A stretch of 30,930 bases of DNA from Coleofasciculus sp. B1-GNL1-01 (lineage in GTDB: Bacteria > Cyanobacteriota > Cyanobacteriia > Cyanobacteriales > Coleofasciculaceae): assembly GCA_040220235.1 (NCBI GenBank), contig JAVJTO010000170.1; one strand, given 5' to 3'. Made by a program: the position numbers and the translations under genes. The notes beneath the pieces were generated by a model. The model was not told the origin of the DNA and did no database searches. It saw nothing but the letters and a program-made list of their open reading frames with translations. Every line of letters begins with the position of its first letter. Within the stretch, counting starts at the first letter, position 1. Positions 1 to 30,672 of this stretch are shown here, in pieces.

Positions 1-134
1 ACGTCGGCGGATTCACTGATACCAAAAAGACTCAGAAGGTTTCTGTTTGTGACTACACCTGGAAACGAATTGGGCAATTTGCTCCTAGTAAAGTTGAGCT
101 AATCAGGAGAAATAACGGCTTATGTGTGGCGTGA
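1..134 (+). CDS. 3' end (partial) of an RRXRR-domain protein, IsrB/IscB-like IS200/IS605 accessory nuclease
   Basis: Frame from base 3 reads VGGFTDTKKTQKVSVCDYTWKRIGQFAPSKVELIRRNNGLCVA* (TGA 132-134). This resembles, from memory, the cyanobacterial RRXRR/IsrB C-terminus (G.V.G.T..QVSV.D..WKR.GQF..SKV.L.RR..GL). Not in the ORF track because it runs off the window edge. Confidence 0.75.
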   Translation, partial: VGGFTDTKKTQKVSVCDYTWKRIGQFAPSKVELIRRNNGLCVA

Positions 135-147
135 AAAAAAAAGAATT

Positions 148-240
148 GGATGCCTCCATCCTTCCGGCATCCCGCTATTCCTCCTCACCCTACGAGAGTT
201 GAGGGTGAGGACTCCCGCGAGTACGTTGAGTGAGGTACTC
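148..240 (+). mobile_element. Candidate IS200/IS605-type right end (subterminal hairpins)
   Basis: Hairpins GGATGCC(148-154)/GGCATCC(166-172), TCCTCACCCT(182-191)/AGGGTGAGGA(202-211) and GAGTAC(219-224)/GTACTC(235-240), directly after the RRXRR-like stop codon. Confidence 0.5.
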
Positions 241-18843: not shown

Positions 18844-19755
18844 GTGCGTTACAAAATTTGTCATACCACAACCTATACCTATAATCAGCCCGTTATATTA
18901 AAACCCCATATCATCAGGCTACGTCCCCGGTGTGACGGGACTCAGACAATGCATTCGTTTAGATTGGAGATTGAACCTAAACCTGAGAAAATTGCTGAGA
19001 TTATTGAACTCGATGGAAACGCGATCGCGAAACTTTTATTTAATACCAGCACCGAACAATTAACGATCAGCGCTACATCCGTTGTGGAAACCTGTCGAAC
19101 TAATCCCGATAGCATTCAACTCGAATCCTGGGCGACTCAGTTACCGATTAATTATCCCGACTACTGGTTCTCTCAGTTACAGCCTTATCAGCAATTTTAT
19201 GACCCTACCTCCGGGAATTCGATCAAGCAATTAGCCCAAGATCTTTACCATCAAGTTAATGGCGATACCGTTAACTTTGTCAAAACACTAAACCAACATC
19301 TCTACAGCCATTGTAAACCCCAGTATCGGGAAAAAGGTGCGCCTCGGTCTCCCCGTAAAACCTGGGACTTAAAGAAAGGCTCTTGTCGCGATTTAGCGGT
19401 ACTATTCATGGATGTTTGTCGGGTGATGGGATTAGGCGCACGGTTTGTTAGTGGGTATCAGGAAGGGAATCTAGAACGATCGCAACGATATCTTCATGCT
19501 TGGGTAGAAATTTACTTACCGGGTGCAGGCTGGCAAGGCTATGATCCTAATCAAGGTGTTATTGTTACAGATCGCCATATTCCCCTCGTGGCTTGTGCTA
19601 TACCCCGATATGCTGCTCCGATTTCCGGTGCGATCGCGACGACGAAATCGGTGGGTGAAGGGGGTAATAAAATTGAGTCAGATATGAAAATTAATTTGTC
19701 GATTGCCAGAGATGAATATAGCGGTTTTCAGTCCGATACAATACATTTAACATAA
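18844..19755 (+). CDS. Transglutaminase-like protein with bacterial N-terminal domain
   Basis: Y.I.H.T.Y.Y N-domain; triad GSCRD (Cys), HAWVE (His), GYDP (Asp); ARFVSGY. Confidence 0.92.
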   Translation: MRYKICHTTTYTYNQPVILKPHIIRLRPRCDGTQTMHSFRLEIEPKPEKIAEIIELDGNAIAKLLFNTSTEQLTISATSVVETCRTNPDSIQLESWATQLPINYPDYWFSQLQPYQQFYDPTSGNSIKQLAQDLYHQVNGDTVNFVKTLNQHLYSHCKPQYREKGAPRSPRKTWDLKKGSCRDLAVLFMDVCRVMGLGARFVSGYQEGNLERSQRYLHAWVEIYLPGAGWQGYDPNQGVIVTDRHIPLVACAIPRYAAPISGAIATTKSVGEGGNKIESDMKINLSIARDEYSGFQSDTIHLT

Positions 19756-23091: not shown

Positions 23092-26000
23092 ATGAAAAGC
23101 AACCAACTGCCAAAAAAACAAGGTTTATACGATCCACAATTTGAACACGATGCGTGCGGTGTCGGATTTGTCGTGCAGATGAAGGGGAATCAGTCCCACG
23201 ATATCGTGGAACAAGCGCTAACGATTCTGGCAAACTTGGAACATCGCGGCGCGTGTGGTTGTGAACCGAACACTGGAGATGGTGCAGGGATTTTAATCCA
23301 AATCCCGGATCAGTTTATGCGGAAAGTCGCCGCCGCTGATAATATTACCCTACCGGAAGCGGGTCAGTATGGGGTGGGGGCGATTTTTACCTCCCCTGAT
23401 CCGATGATTCGCCAGCAGAGTCGCCAGATTTTTGAGAAAATTGCCACGGAAGAAGGGCAAAGGGTTCTAGGGTGGCGGGATGTTCCCGTGGATAATTCGC
23501 CCCTGGGAAGTATCGCTAAACTGGGTGAACCGTTTATGCAACAGGTGTTCATCCAGCGTTCCTCAAATCTGGCTGATGATCTGTCCTTTGAACGGAAACT
23601 CTATGTGATCCTGAAACGGGCGGAAAAAGAACTGAGTAAGTCAGAGATTGACCCCTGTTGGTACACGGCTAGCCTCTCCTGTCGCACGATTGTGTACAAA
23701 GGGATGCTGACGCCGATACAGGTGGGACAATATTATCCCGAACTCCATGATCCGGATCTCAAAAGCGCCCTAGCCTTAGTGCATTCCCGATTTAGTACCA
23801 ATACCTTCCCCAGTTGGGAACGCGCCCACCCCTATCGCTACATCGCCCATAATGGGGAAATTAATACCTTACGGGGTAATATTAACTGGATGCACGCCCG
23901 ACAGTCGCTGTTTAAGTCCAAGCTGTTTGGCGATGACTTGGAGAAAATTCAGCCCGTTATTGATTTAGAGGGGAGTGACTCAGCGATATTCGACAACTCC
24001 CTCGAAATGTTAGTCCTGTCTGGGCGTTCCTTACCCCATGCGGTAATGATGATGATTCCAGAACCTTGGACGAATCATGAGTCGATGAGTGATGAGACAA
24101 AGGCATTCTATGAGTATCACTCCTGTCTCATGGAACCCTGGGATGGTCCAGCTTCCATTGCCTTTACTGATGGTACGACGATTGGGGCAGTTTTGGATCG
24201 CAATGGGTTGCGTCCATCGCGGTATTATGTCACCAAAGATGATCGGGTAATTATGGCATCGGAAGCCGGAGTTTTACCCGTGGAACCCGAAGACGTGGCG
24301 TTTAAAGGGCGCTTGCAACCCGGGCGGATGTTCTTGGTGAATATGGAAGAAGGGCGGATTATTGCTGATGAGGAATTGAAACAGGCAATTATTACCGAAC
24401 ATCCCTATCAAGCGTGGATTGACGAATACATGGTGGAACTGGCACAGTTAAAGGATGCGCCAGAGGTAGCCCAACCGGAACCCGACACCCTGATTCAACG
24501 GCAAGTCGCCTTTGGCTATACCTTCGAGGAATTGCGGATGCTGATGGCACCGATGGCACAGAATGGGGTGGAAGCTGTGGGTTCGATGGGTTCAGATACG
24601 CCCTTGGCGGTGCTATCCGATCGCCCGAAGTTACTTTACAATTATTTCCAGCAACTCTTCGCCCAAGTCACCAATCCCCCGATTGATTCGATTCGGGAAG
24701 AAATTATCACCTCAGCCGAAACCACAATTGGTTCAGAACGCAACTTACTTGAACCTGAACCCCAGAGTTGTCATTTAATTGAACTGAAAACGCCGATTCT
24801 CACCAACGAGGAATTGGCAAAGCTGAAATATGTCTCCGAAGGGGAGTTTAAATCCATTACCCTTCCGATTCTATTTGACCCCAAGGCTGGGGTGAAGGGA
24901 TTGGAAACGGCGATGGAGGAGATTTTCGCCAAAGCGGATCAGGCGATCGCAGAGGGGACGACTATAATTATTTTGAGCGATCGCGGCATTGATAAAGACC
25001 ATGCACCCATCCCCGCTTTACTGGCGGTGGCGGGATTACATCACCACCTAATCCGCAAAAAGACACGTACCAAGGTGGGAATCGTCTTAGAATCCGGAGA
25101 ACCTCGCGAAGTTCATCATCATGCGCTGCTTATCGGGTATGGCTGCGGTGGGATTAATCCCTATCTGATCTATGAAACCATTGACGATATGATCAGCCAG
25201 GGCTTGCTGGAGAATATTGATCGCAAGACAGCCCAGAAAAACTATATCAAAGCCGCCACCAAAGGGGTAATTAAAGTCGCCTCCAAGATTGGCATTTCCA
25301 CGATTCAAAGCTATCGCGGCGCCCAAATCTTTGAAACCATTGGACTCAAACAAGCCCTGGTTGATAAATATTTTACCTGGACAGCCACCCGGATTGAAGG
25401 GGCGGATTTAGACGTAATTGCCCAAGAAGCCATTATGCGTCATCGCCACGCCTTCCCAGATCGAGAGGTGAATGGACATACCCTAGATGCAGGCGGCGAA
25501 TATCAGTGGCGTAAAGACGGTGAGGCACACCTATTAAGCCCCCAAACCATCCACGCCCTACAAAACGCCGTGCGTCAGGGAAGTTATGAGTCCTATAAAG
25601 AGTATTCTGCCCTAATTAATGAGCAGACCAAGCAACATTTTACCCTACGTGGACTCCTACAATTCAAGAAACGCGACCCGATTCCCTTAGAGGAAGTCGA
25701 ACCCGTGGAGGCGATTACCCGACGCTTCAAAACTGGGGCGATGAGTTATGGTTCCATTTCTAAAGAAGCACATGAATCCCTAGCCATCGCCATGAACCGA
25801 ATTGGCGGGAAATCCAATACCGGGGAAGGGGGAGAAGATCCCGAACGCTATACCTGGACGAATGAACAGGGCGATTCTAAGAATAGCGCGATTAAACAAG
25901 TCGCATCGGGGCGGTTTGGCGTCAACAGTTTGTATTTGTCTCAAGCCAAGGAACTCCAAATCAAGATGGCGCAGGGGGCGAAACCGGGAGAAGGGGGACA

Positions 26001-27691: not shown

Positions 27692-27844
27692 CGTAGGGTG
27701 CGTTAGCGAAGCGTAACGCACCATTTCCCCAAGGTTTAATCACAGGGAAGCGTAACGCACCATTTCCCCAGGGTTTGATCACAGGGCGACCCGAGTCAAT
27801 TGAATGGACAGCGTTGTTCATTGATGCAGGCGGGTCGCCCCTAC
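27692..27844. repeat. REP cluster with a 39-bp tandem duplication
   Basis: GGTGCGTTA-GCGAAGCG-TAACGCACC hairpin; 27708-27746 duplicated at 27747-27785; GGGCGACCCG...CGGGTCGCCC-CTAC. Confidence 0.8.
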
Positions 27845-27877
27845 CGATCAACCGATACACGCCTAGAAAAAGCGGTC

Positions 27878-28210
27878 ATGAAAATTCCTAATCGCGATCG
27901 CGCTATTATTGAATCATCCAAATTAACGGAATATCTGCTAAATCCAGACCATAAGCGAGGCGGCACTAAAGCCAAACTTTTAATTCAATGCGGCTATTCT
28001 CAAGAAAAATATCAGCAATTAGAAACCGATATTCGTGCTTATCATCTATCGGAAGATATTGATATTGTGAAAGAAACGGCTTATGGAACGCGATATGAAA
28101 TCAGTGCTTATCTTTCTACACCTGTCGGTAGACAACTGCTTGTCCGGACGATTTGGCAAATAGATAAAGGTACAGATTTCCCCCGTTTGATTACGTTGAT
28201 TCCTGATTAA
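27878..28210 (+). CDS. DUF6883-like protein
   Basis: A.I...KL..YLLN..H..G..KA......GY, YGTRY, V.T.W..D.....PRLIT pattern; ATG at 27878. Confidence 0.75.
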   Translation: MKIPNRDRAIIESSKLTEYLLNPDHKRGGTKAKLLIQCGYSQEKYQQLETDIRAYHLSEDIDIVKETAYGTRYEISAYLSTPVGRQLLVRTIWQIDKGTDFPRLITLIPD

Positions 28211-28229
28211 TCGGTGAATAGAGGATACC

Positions 28230-28478
28230 ATGGATTACGAACTTTATTCAGACGTTATCTTGCTTGGCGATATTCCTGAAGCTGGACTTTATGCAGGTGA
28301 TATCGGTACAGTTGTCGAAAAACATAACGTTGCTGAATTAGAAACGGGTTATAGTGTTGAATTTTTTGATATGTTAGGCAATACCGTAGCCGTTATGACT
28401 CTACCTGAAAGTTCCCTCCGTTCACCAACTCATGCAGACCGACCAACGGTTAGACAAATTAATAATTTTGCCGCGTAG
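28230..28478 (+). CDS. DUF4926-like small protein
   Basis: LY.DV.L..DIPE.GL.AGDIGTVVE, GYSVEFFD..G.T.AV; RBS GAGG. Confidence 0.8.
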   Translation: MDYELYSDVILLGDIPEAGLYAGDIGTVVEKHNVAELETGYSVEFFDMLGNTVAVMTLPESSLRSPTHADRPTVRQINNFAA

Positions 28479-28663: not shown

Positions 28664-29104
28664 TCTCGACTTCAGAGTAAGTTGATTCAATCCATTAATA
28701 ATGTCAGCGAAGCCGAACAACTTGCTTATGCGTTTCCTGAATTGCGTTGCACCTTTGGCGGACGGTCAATTGTTGCCGATATAGCGGTTCTGCGGTGGGA
28801 ACATATTCAGTTTGATCAACAGGGCGAACCCCTTGATGATGTGGTCATCCCGCCAGATTGGATGATTGAAATTCTCTCACCCAACCAAAGTTCTAATCAG
28901 GTTACAGGTAATATTCTGCACGCGCTCAAGTATGGGTGTCAATTGGGATGGCTACTTGACCCAGAGGATCGTTCAATTTTAGTGTTTATGCCTCAACAAC
29001 AACCAGAGTTAAAGAATAATCGTGATGCGTTAATTGGGTTAGAAGGCATTCCATTAACGTTAACCGTTGAGCAAGTTTTTGGTTGGTTAAAAATGAAAAA
29101 ATAG
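28664..29104 (+). pseudogene. 5'-truncated Uma2 (DUF820) family endonuclease
   Basis: Frame reads SRLQSKLIQSIN...AFPELRCTFGGRSIVADIAV...PDWMIEILSP...GWLLDP. The usual N-terminal LEEFL/EY..G/KPMP segment is absent and repeat DNA lies in its place. Confidence 0.75.
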
Positions 29105-29235
29105 CATTTTTATGAGTGTTTTATTGTGGGATTGGGGCGGTGTCAGGTATGGTCAACGTAGAACCCGCAAGACTTCGTGGATTTTGCCTCTGTTGTAAAT
29201 TGTTACATTCTGCTGAAACCTTTATATGTTACATT

Positions 29236-30672
29236 TTACAAGTCTCGACGCGAGAGAAGAGCATCGCACCATTCCCACAAATGAGATTCGTACGTCTCAT
29301 AACCCGGAGCAACCGGCAGCCTATAGCAGTATCGATACTTAACCGTAGGGAGATGCCCCTGGGGGGCATGGGGACTGTAGAAAAGGTTGTCGTCTCTAAT
29401 CCAACTCTTATTCACACGCCAACCCACGGTATCACCAAACGCACATAATACGCCTAAATTATACACGCCTTGCCCCCCTACACTTTGCCAAATTTGCTTT
29501 TGCACAGAAAAACCAAAGCGTCCGTTACTGTATTTTACCCAGAGACGGTCAATCGTTCGCAGGTCAGTGCAAGGGAATTTTCCAATATCTTCTCTGGTTA
29601 CATCCAACCAGTATTTTTTGCCGATAACAGCCAGCATTTTATCTGCCGTTTCTTCATCGGCTGCTTTCCATTTTCCAGCCGCTAATAAATCTTGCAGTCG
29701 GCGGTAATCGACCTTCTCCGACACACCGACTACCGGACCGCTTTCGACATTTGGTTGTGGTTCCTGGTCCACTGGTTGTAGTGGTGTTAATAAATCTCGC
29801 AGTCGGCGGTAATCGATACCACATTCTGAACTCAAATCATCATCCAAATTCTCAGGAATCAATAACCGCAACCATTCCGACACCGATTGAGGACGATTTT
29901 CCGGTTGCAGTTCCATTCCCGTCAAAATCCCTTGATTCACCCTATCACTCAGAGTTGAATTCAGCGCCTGTGGTGGTTGTAACGAATCCCGCACCACTCG
30001 CATAAATGCTGGCGGTGGTACTTTTGTCGTCAGTAGACAATACAGCGTCGCCGCCAACCCATACACATCCGTATATTCTCCCCGATGTGCCTGCTCATCA
30101 TACTGCTCAATCGGCGCAAACCCTGGTGTGACATGAACACTATGAGTTTGGGTTAGATTGGGGATAAATTCTCTAGCAATACCAAAATCAATTAGTACCG
30201 CTTCTGATACACCAGAACGCACCATAATATTCTGGGGTTTTAAATCTCGATGCAATAATCCCTTATCATGAACCACCGTCAGCGCTTCCCCAATCTGCTG
30301 GATATAGCCTAATGCTTCAGCTTCCGATAAAGGACTACGATTTCTCACCCGTCGCCATAAATCTTCCCCCTGGATATATTCCATGGCGATACAGGGAAGG
30401 GATTGTTCATGAAAAACATTTTCAATCTGGACAATATGGGGATGTCTACATACAGCTAATCGGGTAGCTTCCTGTTCAAAATCTCGTTGGTATTTATCGC
30501 GAAACTCGCTAAAGTCGGGATTCGTCATCACCTCGTCTTTCAGGGTTTTGATGACGAGGGGGTTGCCTTTTTTGTTTTTTGCCAGGTAGGTGATACCAAA
30601 GCCACCTTGACCGAGTTTTCGTTCAATGACGTAGCGACGACCGTATAATTGCTGTCCCTTGAGCCAGACCAT
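29236..30672 (-). CDS. Ser/Thr protein kinase fused to a C-terminal GUN4-like domain
   Basis: LGQGGFGITY, VIK, HRDLKPQN, DFG, GFAPIEQ, DVYGLAAT; GUN4 motifs DY..L.DLL....WK.AD.ET, FPC.DL.TID.LW..YS.GRFGFSVQK.IW, GWR, AP.GHLP. Confidence 0.93.
   Translation of the reverse strand: MVWLKGQQLYGRRYVIERKLGQGGFGITYLAKNKKGNPLVIKTLKDEVMTNPDFSEFRDKYQRDFEQEATRLAVCRHPHIVQIENVFHEQSLPCIAMEYIQGEDLWRRVRNRSPLSEAEALGYIQQIGEALTVVHDKGLLHRDLKPQNIMVRSGVSEAVLIDFGIAREFIPNLTQTHSVHVTPGFAPIEQYDEQAHRGEYTDVYGLAATLYCLLTTKVPPPAFMRVVRDSLQPPQALNSTLSDRVNQGILTGMELQPENRPQSVSEWLRLLIPENLDDDLSSECGIDYRRLRDLLTPLQPVDQEPQPNVESGPVVGVSEKVDYRRLQDLLAAGKWKAADEETADKMLAVIGKKYWLDVTREDIGKFPCTDLRTIDRLWVKYSNGRFGFSVQKQIWQSVGGQGVYNLGVLCAFGDTVGWRVNKSWIRDDNLFYSPHAPQGHLPTVKYRYCYRLPVAPGYETYESHLWEWCDALLSRRDL

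Follow-up and report, generated by a model that had tools for sequence, protein, structure and literature searches.

Simple-sequence contingency loci produce phase variation by slipped-strand mispairing. Diversity-generating retroelements (DGRs) are found on cyanobacterial kinases, caspases and similar multidomain proteins, with GUN4-like domains among the N-terminal partner domains, according to the available part of PMC7517822. In conflict systems of cyanobacteria and in bacterial NLR-like proteins, GUN4 acts as the sensor at the C-terminus, fused to kinase, caspase, trypsin, TIR or NACHT domains (available parts of PMC7159879 and bioRxiv 10.1101/2022.07.19.500537). Here, we analyse a gene of this type from Coleofasciculus sp. 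B1-GNL1-01, a Ser/Thr protein kinase-GUN4 gene located on a stretch of 30,930 nucleotides (nt) of contig JAVJTO010000170.1 (contig C170 below), the whole of which we call the window. Downstream of a GHLP motif that closes the conserved GUN4 core, the gene runs through a hypervariable linker and ends in a 40-nt tail that can be read in all three frames, each closed by its own TAA. Comparison with homologues shows that the tail is a coding constant region working in three frames, beside a linker that turns over by length changes. A preliminary description of this DNA had proposed such an indel-tolerant constant region as part of a candidate C-terminal diversification system: three-frame use, the freezing of the tail as DNA and the changes in length all stood up to comparison, while the active diversifier did not.

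As in DGR targets (available part of PMC7517822), a C-terminal hypervariable patch is carried by sensor-type proteins of the kinase, caspase or TIR class, conserved DNA bounds the patch on its 3’ side, and the variable part is presumed to tune recognition. Unlike in DGR targets, what turns over here is length and sequence wholesale rather than adenines specifically, no template repeat was found by blastn of the whole source genome, turnover is seen only above about 5% divergence, and the constant region is three-frame, for which a DGR target has no need. With contingency loci, the gene may have in common short non-triplet repeats and small indels within the open reading frame (ORF) that shift the frame. 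In contrast to these loci, the shift is no off-switch, each frame giving an equivalent helix and stop (138 genes, among the matches listed); the tracts are degenerate, and high-frequency switching was not observed among close relatives. The RAYT (REP-associated tyrosine transposase)/TnpA-REP and IS200/IS605 Y1 HUH systems (available part of PMC6006769) resemble the locus in that relatives have a downstream gene with a Y1_Tnp domain and in that a small hairpin lies in the adjacent conserved DNA. They differ from it in that here no repetitive extragenic palindromic (REP) or REPIN family and no flanking inverted REP was found around two intact copies, copies or remnants number 0 to 4 per genome rather than one, and the genes are tied to GUN4 3’ ends; a link between RAYT and GUN4 is absent from the cyanobacterial coverage in the available part of that RAYT classification paper. 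The canonical porphyrin-binding protein Gun4 (PDB 1Y6I, 1Z3X, 4XKB/4XKC) shares the fold (Z 16-19) and the location of the C-terminal helix. Its loop behind GHLP is short and of fixed length, and it lacks both the three-frame tail and a fused effector; the canonical copy of the source genome ends ...ATLLSHPAWLS. GUN4 proteins of conflict systems (PMC7159879; bioRxiv 10.1101/2022.07.19.500537, available parts) have the same architectures, with GUN4 placed where others carry FGS or repeat sensors, and those accounts, as far as they are available, contain neither a hypervariable linker nor a three-frame tail nor a RAYT neighbour. Full-text literature searches on GUN4 genes likewise found none of the three.

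A tail conserved as DNA and read in three frames

The 39-mer first reported for the minus strand (29260-29222) is present letter for letter. The frame in use ends ...ALLSRRDL* (TAA at 29238-29236), the second frame ...FSRVETCKM* (TAA at 29231-29229) and the third ...SSLASRLVKCNI* (TAA at 29224-29222). In CTCTTCTCTCGCGTCGAGA, reading from offset 0 gives L-F-S-R, from offset 2 L-L-S-R and from offset 7 L-A-S-R; hydrophobic codons come next, and after them a triple heptamer, TGTAAAA TGTAACA TATAAAG, which provides one TAA per frame with the stops 7 nt apart. Three close stops alone are only mildly unusual: in the source genome, 244 of 4594 long open frames (5.3%) have three-frame stops within 17 nt of their own stop, and 53 of the 4594 have stops at exactly 0, +7 and +14. 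As clustered stops are not rare by themselves, the finding rests on comparative evidence, and there the conservation and use of the tail are far beyond chance.

For this comparison, t=0 was set at window position 29261, and the frame of GHLP, located with our own hidden Markov model (HMM) of the GUN4 core, was followed to its stop. Frames are named by stop position, i.e. t=30 for LFSRVETCK(M/L/V), t=23 for LLSRRDL (the frame of the window gene) and t=37 for SSLASRLV(K/N)CNI*. BLAST with window 29110-29300 returned matches in 34 of 61 related genomes, at up to 5 places per genome and almost always beginning at the first base of the tail. Fifty of the 57 tail-bearing genome loci have GUN4 upstream, and these 50 use t=30 in 21 cases, t=23 in 14 and t=37 in 12, with a stop before the tail in 3. 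Metagenomes added at least 122 further tails, at least 112 of them with GUN4. Here and wherever metagenome loci enter a count below, numbers are among the matches listed: t=30 was used in 36, t=23 in 33 and t=37 in 31 (+4), with 6 premature stops and 2 tails read through into a second GUN4 domain. Genome loci and metagenome matches together yielded a dereplicated set of 138 genes, 55 ending at t=30, 43 at t=23 and 40 at t=37. The lengths from GHLP to the tail thus represent all residues modulo 3 in roughly equal shares. The preliminary description had stated that all three endings occur among cyanobacterial GUN4 paralogs, and they do, even within the source genome.

That genome (8.66 Mb, 172 contigs, nine GUN4-domain matches) contains, on contig C158, a recent paralog 94% identical to the window gene over the first 1 kb. 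It ends ...ISSLASRLVKCNI*, i.e. the same tail DNA in another frame; tail and downstream DNA are 98% identical to those of the window, and the ~85 nt before the tail are unalignable. A profile of the tail and the conserved block that follows it (see below) matched contigs C170, C158, C111 and C12 only.

The GUN4 profile was matched by 86 of 86 scanned tail-bearing ORFs, and the offset expected for L-x-S-R is occupied by a motif of this kind in 130 of the 138 genes. In protein alignment A3, the L, S and R are at least 90% conserved over all frames and the P of GHLP is invariant; the GUN4-core HMM stops at this same border. A stop before the tail was found in 9 of 162 GUN4-bearing genes. Effector N-termini with the tail module include kinase, caspase, TIR, CHAT/EAD1 and FGE-sulfatase domains. 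Public proteins with the same three endings come from Microcystis, Planktothrix, Dolichospermum, Nodularia, Nostoc and others. Across the phylum, the tail core motif TCTCTCGC-N4-AGACTTGTA was present in 64 of 401 sampled genomes and its reversed control in none of the 401; the motif was not found in the small-genome family f38 (0/29) or in 225 genomes of other classes.

Some loci depart from this pattern. In L012 (G003:C56), a syntenic orthologue of the window gene with a flank 90-100% identical beyond the block, the GHLP frame stops 28 nt before the tail; L033, L106 and 6 metagenome loci also stop early. L014 (G004:C3), from the same genus, retains a kinase part ~93% identical and the tail, with the whole GUN4 domain absent and 15 open codons before the tail, and is probably a deletion derivative or pseudogene. 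Separately, in L021, L186 and protein P0071, a tail-bearing GUN4 shares the protein with an FGE-sulfatase domain, whose C-type-lectin-like fold is the usual object of diversification by DGRs.

We then compared divergence at the DNA level in a codon alignment of 32 genes. Pairwise nucleotide identity in the GUN4 core was 0.66/0.73/0.44 by codon position, and 0.54 at the third positions of 35 near-invariant GUN4 columns. Over t0-22, the tail reached 0.90, a level that holds between cyanobacterial families, and its third codon positions 0.87/0.94/0.79 in the three frame groups, far from the normal third-position divergence of the near-invariant columns. In related genomes and metagenomes alike, the tail is therefore conserved as DNA though read in different frames, as the preliminary description had supposed. 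All three stops are kept in 139 of 171 unique tails, and genes ending at the first TAA (t=23) keep the second stop in 40 of 43 cases and the third in 34 of 43.

The encoded peptides are retained as well. In the source genome, two of the endings survive on divergent DNA, one in the paralog on C42 (SLLSRQDL*) and one in that on C15 (LFARVRACNL*); 6 of 7 codons of the C42 tail specify the same residue as in the window, five of those via a different codon. In C12, L165.1 and L190.1, tails are read through within longer proteins. AlphaFold2 (AF2) models of two GUN4 domains predicted a C-terminal helix at residues 158-169 of the window domain (last 174 amino acids (aa), frame 23) and at residues 153-172 of the C158 domain (frame 37; predicted local distance difference test (pLDDT) 84-90), with low confidence over residues 139-157 of the window model, which correspond to the linker. 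Superposed on 4xkc, the window model gave Z 18.9 and a root-mean-square deviation (rmsd) of 1.7 over 143 residues (model 5..174), and the C158 model Z 16.2 and rmsd 3.0 over 150 residues (model 1..175), both aligning to the solved GUN4 up to their last residue, as judged from the first and last aligned positions. Alignment A1, which was folded, is split by tandem-domain proteins. The proposal that the tail supplies a terminal helix is thus supported by prediction in frames 23 and 37, the two that were folded. Together, the endings on recoded DNA, the read-through tails and the predicted terminal helix argue that the peptides matter. The C12 frame (~23620-24065, minus strand) encodes 847 aa with GUN4, a G-rich linker and a tail-like YLSRRLVECN from which the stops have been lost, and runs on into proline-rich and leucine-rich repeats.

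The tail also contains, as first described, the inverted repeat TCTCG-N3-CGAGA (29255-29243, spacer CGT). It is broken in the common variant TCTCGCGTCCAGA (variants with TCCAGA), and no compensatory change or covariation was found across variants; its conservation is explained by Arg and Ser codons in all frames.

Composition and turnover of the linker

Same-genus homologues are ~93% identical to the window over the kinase part, and the tail together with ~120 nt beyond it reaches 93-100%; the linker falls to 3-50% per 30-column block, exactly from GHLP (29347) to the tail (29261). Metagenome contigs placed on the window part from it at 29261, carry 40, 39 or 32 other letters and match again from 29347/29348; they show further variants within the same borders. 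In 119 unique segments, linker length ranges from 24 to 147 nt (median 63), and composition is uniform along the segment at G.35-.44 and C.10-.15 (overall G.38, C.11). Some linkers are nearly pure G/T and a few G/A; that of the window has an ordinary composition (G.32, C.18) and no long perfect tract. Synonymous third positions have an excess of G (306 observed vs 176 expected) and a deficit of C (122 vs 201) and A (166 vs 236; p = 5e-32), and GGG (83 vs 38 expected) and AGG (33 vs 6) are over-represented, so that the G bias acts at the nucleotide level.

The linkers are rich in short near-repeats: 371 5-mer near-repeats were counted, vs 241 +/- 17.5 after shuffling (maximum 290 in 500 shuffles), with spacing peaks at 4, 5, 7 and 14. 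Tandem duplications are seen in the linkers of L082, L118 and L184.1, and some take in part of the tail. Upstream of the current tail, L181.1, L184.1, L215.1 and L226.1 (4 of 141 loci) contain remnants of an older tail (..LFSRIQT.., ..LFSCVET..), which indicates that duplications can take in the tail start. Selection against off-frame stops was not detected in ~1050 linker codons, where 50 + 57 such stops are about what composition predicts. Two other ideas were rejected. Firstly, RNA pairing between the G-rich linker and the CU-rich tail involved 54% of tail positions vs 37% in a control but gave z ~0 vs shuffled linkers. Secondly, an origin of linkers by hyper-transition was set aside when the purine/pyrimidine strings of L011 and C158, compared by eye, did not match.

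Frame changes on the GUN4-core tree of 32 genes numbered 15, vs a shuffled mean of 15.3, and were as low in 112 of 200 shuffles; frame thus has no phylogenetic signal, and one well-supported genus-level clade contains all three frames. A single step of this kind is seen between L276.1 and L055, whose cores are 98.7% identical and where a 5-nt indel near the 3’ end of the linker moves the tail from frame 37 to frame 23. Among DNA pairs with cores at least 99% identical, the linker is identical in 4 of 4, and among pairs at 90-95% in 0 of 25, with the same length in 1 and the same frame in 8 of the 25. Protein pairs behave likewise: in all 157 pairs at least 95% identical before GHLP, mostly from one Microcystis family, the part behind GHLP agrees in length and is at least 80% identical, and the lengths agree in 4 of 47 pairs at 80-90%. 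In ten clusters of proteins at 90% identity, members with cores at least 93% identical to the representative keep the linker save for point changes, the lone exception being Planktothrix at 94%. Cluster members with unrelated linkers have GUN4 cores just 74-89% identical, a pattern suggesting that, behind conserved N-termini, entire GUN4 cassettes were exchanged or paralogs are involved. Sharing of a linker among 140 was limited to near-identical genes, save one case (L165.1/L239.1). The diversification system of the preliminary description is thus not supported as an active one, given the invariance of the linker between close relatives, in DNA and protein pairs alike. Judged from these comparisons, turnover appears to proceed on an evolutionary time-scale, and no real-time change was seen.

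The post-tail block and RAYT-like HUH genes

Conservation does not end with the tail. Beyond the last stop, ~95 nt (29221-29126) contain sub-blocks conserved across families, with 72-80% identity for the block. This block matched no Rfam family (a permissive threshold over 28800-29600 gave two chance-level matches) and contains no promoter-like or terminator-like site; RNAalifold of 36 tails with 132 nt detected no consensus structure for either of the two strands. A further reading, an antisense protein spanning the block, was rejected, as its frame is open in only about half of the loci and conservation has no 3-nt periodicity (0.90/0.98/0.92); the half-open frame is due to the variable C-terminal ends and remnants of a RAYT-like gene on the opposite strand.

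This gene was met as an opposite-strand ORF family after the tail in 38 loci, and tblastn extended its homology to 64 of the 172 tails with at least 150 nt downstream. In all 64, it is convergent to the tail, at a median nearest distance of t=74. Eleven copies look intact (at least 230 aa open) and 53 are remnants or ended by the locus edge; 65 tails with at least 800 nt seen downstream have no RAYT homology. Pfam Y1_Tnp was found in 4 of 4 tested proteins (1e-19 to 1e-20), which have the motifs NH(I/V)H and YIHANP and are extended by a long C-terminal tail; their best NCBIfam match, NF047646 (REP-associated tyrosine transposase), scored 74 bits, below the cut-off of 80. Read antisense, the block motif CGATACCTGGCAC corresponds to a VPGIG motif close to the C-terminal end of these proteins, and over 164 tails, block motif and RAYT homology occurred together in 56, block alone in 33, homology alone in 6 and neither in 69. 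Identity between the copies of different genomes is 65-81%; each genome has 0 to 4 copies or remnants, many of them broken. Within the 61 related genomes, 23 of 34 loci of the RAYT-like clade, counted by eye, lie within ~420 nt of a tail.

In the window, the translation of 29137-29208 (plus strand) is identical at 13 of 24 positions (E 5e-7) to residues 248-271 of the intact L017 protein, and a broken copy lies beside the C158 paralog. The source genome yielded no intact copy, and neither did most of those of the 61 genomes that bear a tail. Around two intact copies, only short weak inverted-repeat pairs were seen, with no REP-like repeats and no defined ends. The preliminary description had stated that the window contains no reverse transcriptase or recombinase; this is right for the 23 ORFs scanned, but the RAYT-like remnant after the tail had been missed. 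In L011 and L015 (1600-2650; G001:C96 and G008:C186), two relatives from the same genus, an insertion of ~850 nt with two genes (~140 and ~120 aa) lies directly after the block, flanked by a ~25-nt direct repeat, ACCTGGCACCGCCCCAAC...; the two ORFs may be an XisH/XisI-type pair.

The features of the region are collected in Table 1. The Pkinase profile scored 134.2 bits on the window protein (cut-off 31.7), which identifies a Hanks-type Ser/Thr kinase, and the GUN4 profile 137.7 bits (cut-off 29.2) over profile positions 4-126 of 141. On the other side of the tail, homology to C158 and relatives stops near 29125, and the Uma2-family gene takes the place where relatives have the RAYT-like gene. 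Two small genes at 27800-28478, DUF6883 (136 aa) and DUF4926 (82 aa), adjoin the Uma2-family gene and form with it a small accessory island between a glutamate synthase gene and the kinase-GUN4 gene. The further 19 window ORFs of at least 110 aa that were scanned are ordinary housekeeping genes or have no family assignment, and none of them is a reverse transcriptase, recombinase or transposase. Inside the kinase-GUN4 gene, a 29-nt direct repeat, 96.6% identical (29683-29711 / 29788-29816), duplicates the start of the GUN4 domain (..IDYRRLRDLL.. / ..VDYRRLQDLL..) and gives the window gene an extra partial linker copy that paralog C158 does not have. Elsewhere in the source genome, the stop codon of canonical gun4 is followed by successive copies of the heptamer TTGGTCA (contig C140, ~19410-19460), which presumably resemble the heptanucleotide STRR repeats of heterocystous cyanobacteria.

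Table 1 Features of the kinase-GUN4 locus and its 3’ flank in the window
Feature	Position	Strand	Basis
Ser/Thr protein kinase-GUN4 gene, 478 aa	29236..30672	-	ORF + Pfam
Pkinase domain, aa 14-221	30010-30633	-	Pfam 7e-39
GUN4 domain (PF05419), aa 319-445	29338-29718	-	Pfam 3.9e-40
GHLP motif, last conserved GUN4-core residues, 5’ border of variable segment	29347..29358	-	
Hypervariable GHLP-to-tail segment (linker), 85 nt, TVKYRYCYRLPVAPGYETYESHLWEWCD-	29262..29346	-	Homologue comparison
Three-frame tail, 40 nt, CTCTTCTCTCGCGTCGAGACTTGTAAAATGTAACATATAA	29222..29261	-	
Inverted repeat TCTCG-CGT-CGAGA within tail	29243..29255	-	Read from sequence
Conserved post-tail block: 3’-terminal remnant of convergent RAYT-like (Y1 HUH) gene and flank	29126..29221	+	
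Convergent Uma2-family gene	28682..29104	+	Pfam Uma2 3.4e-19

Origin of the turnover and its implications

The explanation we favour, at about an even chance of being the right one, is ordinary turnover of the linker by slippage and indels, buffered by the three-frame, indel-tolerant tail. The window gene belongs to a large cyanobacterial family whose members carry a GUN4 sensor behind an effector (a kinase here, elsewhere a caspase, TIR, CHAT or other domain), and the last helix of the sensor is encoded by a 40-nt three-frame palimpsest. The low-complexity linker would change mainly by short tandem duplications, deletions and insertions not in multiples of three. Each frame of the tail giving a helix and a stop, such length changes would neither truncate nor extend the protein, the linker would be free to explore length and sequence, and genes would drift among the three frames. 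Selection would then hit all three readings in turn, and the tail would be frozen as DNA. We infer that ordinary slippage and indel mutation would be enough, with no need for a dedicated enzyme in the source genome, and that the linker serves to tune recognition by the sensor. This explanation is preferred because of the short-repeat signature, the 5-nt indel, the stability between close relatives and the fact that the source genome and most others with a tail yielded no intact RAYT-like gene.

A number of observations weigh against it. The G-rich, C-poor bias of the coding strand at all codon positions and the razor-sharp 3’ border are poorly explained by slippage, and canonical G-quadruplex motifs are only weakly enriched (7 of 46 linkers vs 3.7 shuffled) in linkers whose repeats are degenerate rather than long and perfect. 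The linker can be replaced completely at ~6% core divergence (Planktothrix cluster 4; the 25 pairs at 90-95%), and the data contain 0 pairs at 95-99% DNA identity, which leaves the rate poorly bounded. Identity past the last stop, at 0.64-0.66, implies that three-frame coding is not the only constraint on the 3’ half. Finally, the tight, oriented association with the RAYT-like HUH gene is superfluous to a slippage model and hints at an enzymatic or mobile-element process. Strand bias, sharp border and HUH association together keep alive two alternatives, a diversifier that works without reverse transcriptase and a mobile element.

In the first of these, which we regard as unlikely, a RAYT-like HUH (Y1) nuclease would nick one strand at a border marked by the tail and its hairpin, and repair, slipped or untemplated synthesis would then write G-rich DNA before the tail. 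The three-frame tail would make every rewrite productive, i.e. a full-length sensor with a new loop beside the ligand site. The source genome would have lost the enzyme, and the window would hold an inactivated or fossil module. Such a process would account for the sharp border of variability at the tail start and the strand-asymmetric composition of linkers. It would also fit a Y1_Tnp gene that is always convergent and keeps close to the tail, the broken copy by C158 and the 24-aa remnant in the window, and the occurrence of the module behind kinase, caspase, TIR, CHAT and FGE-sulfatase N-termini alike. What it does not explain is why only 11 of 64 copies look intact and why the source genome and most of those of the 61 that bear a tail yielded none, nor why close relatives retain their linkers. 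Median linker G was.42-.43 with RAYT and.38 without (best p 0.03, uncorrected), which is no clear difference, and no REP-like inverted repeats surround the gene. Moreover, HUH Y1 transposases cut and join precisely and are not known for mutagenic synthesis.

A second alternative, less probable again, takes the tail and block as the target or cis-acting end of a site-specific RAYT/IS200-like mobile element that has landed behind GUN4 genes time and again and decays afterwards; conservation of the DNA would then reflect the requirements of the element and its recent spread, and the three readable frames would be a by-product. The fixed orientation and distance, the few intact copies among many remnants and the way in which the block motif tracks RAYT homology (56/33/6/69) are as this would predict, as is a block 72-80% identical across families vs 44% at third positions of the GUN4 core; relatives with an extra two-gene cassette after the block, with its ~25-nt direct repeat, also speak for it. 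Yet the 69 of 164 tails that have neither block nor RAYT homology still keep the tail, which at 0.90 is much better conserved than the block, and no second element end was found around the two intact copies. A pure DNA site would not require L-x-S-R in all frames; the tail also aligns to the terminal helix of canonical GUN4, and diverged paralogs retain the peptides on recoded DNA.

Thirdly, linkers or whole GUN4 cassettes could be swapped by recombination or gene conversion, with the GUN4 core and the tail and block as homology arms, as in pilin antigenic variation. Exchange between paralogs probably contributes, but as the full account we rate it a shade lower than the mobile element. The C170/C158 pair is a mosaic: identity is 94% across 1 kb, drops to 79% within the GUN4 part and is 98% in tail and block, while the linker cannot be aligned; clusters of proteins at 90% identity contain 74-89% GUN4 cores with unrelated linkers; several tails occur per genome, some in tandem; and L165.1 and L239.1 have an identical linker on cores 77% identical. 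Otherwise, linkers among the 140 are shared just by near-identical genes, and the source genome holds no donor copy of the window linker. Exchange, furthermore, moves variation without creating it and leaves the G bias unexplained. A DGR acting in trans, suggested by a C-terminal variable patch followed by a conserved DNA element and by the target classes cited at the outset, is close to excluded: linkers of 24-147 nt, unalignable between 93%-identical homologues, are unlike A-to-N substitution at fixed length, blastn of the gene and flank vs the whole source genome found no second linker copy or template repeat, none of the 23 window ORFs scanned, to which this search was confined, is a reverse transcriptase, and the fold is GUN4 and not a C-type lectin.

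Whichever process feeds it, the locus shows a natural route to a loop that can evolve by indels of any length, namely a constant region with the same meaning in three frames. Indels of any length open far more sequence space than is open to systems limited to substitution, such as DGRs. GUN4 genes that seem frameshifted relative to their relatives are likely intact, which matters for annotation, and for engineering, the tail is a ready frame-independent terminator and helix. From the association described here, a possible function that can be tested also emerges for one clade of HUH (RAYT-like) genes that have been domesticated. If the diversifier without reverse transcriptase were true, it would be an undescribed generator of diversity, providing junctional diversity of length and sequence to prokaryotic immune-type sensors. 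In multicellular cyanobacteria, the module takes the place of the sensor in kinase-, caspase-, TIR-, CHAT- and NLR-type proteins, and it may bear on how their conflict and immune systems track their targets.

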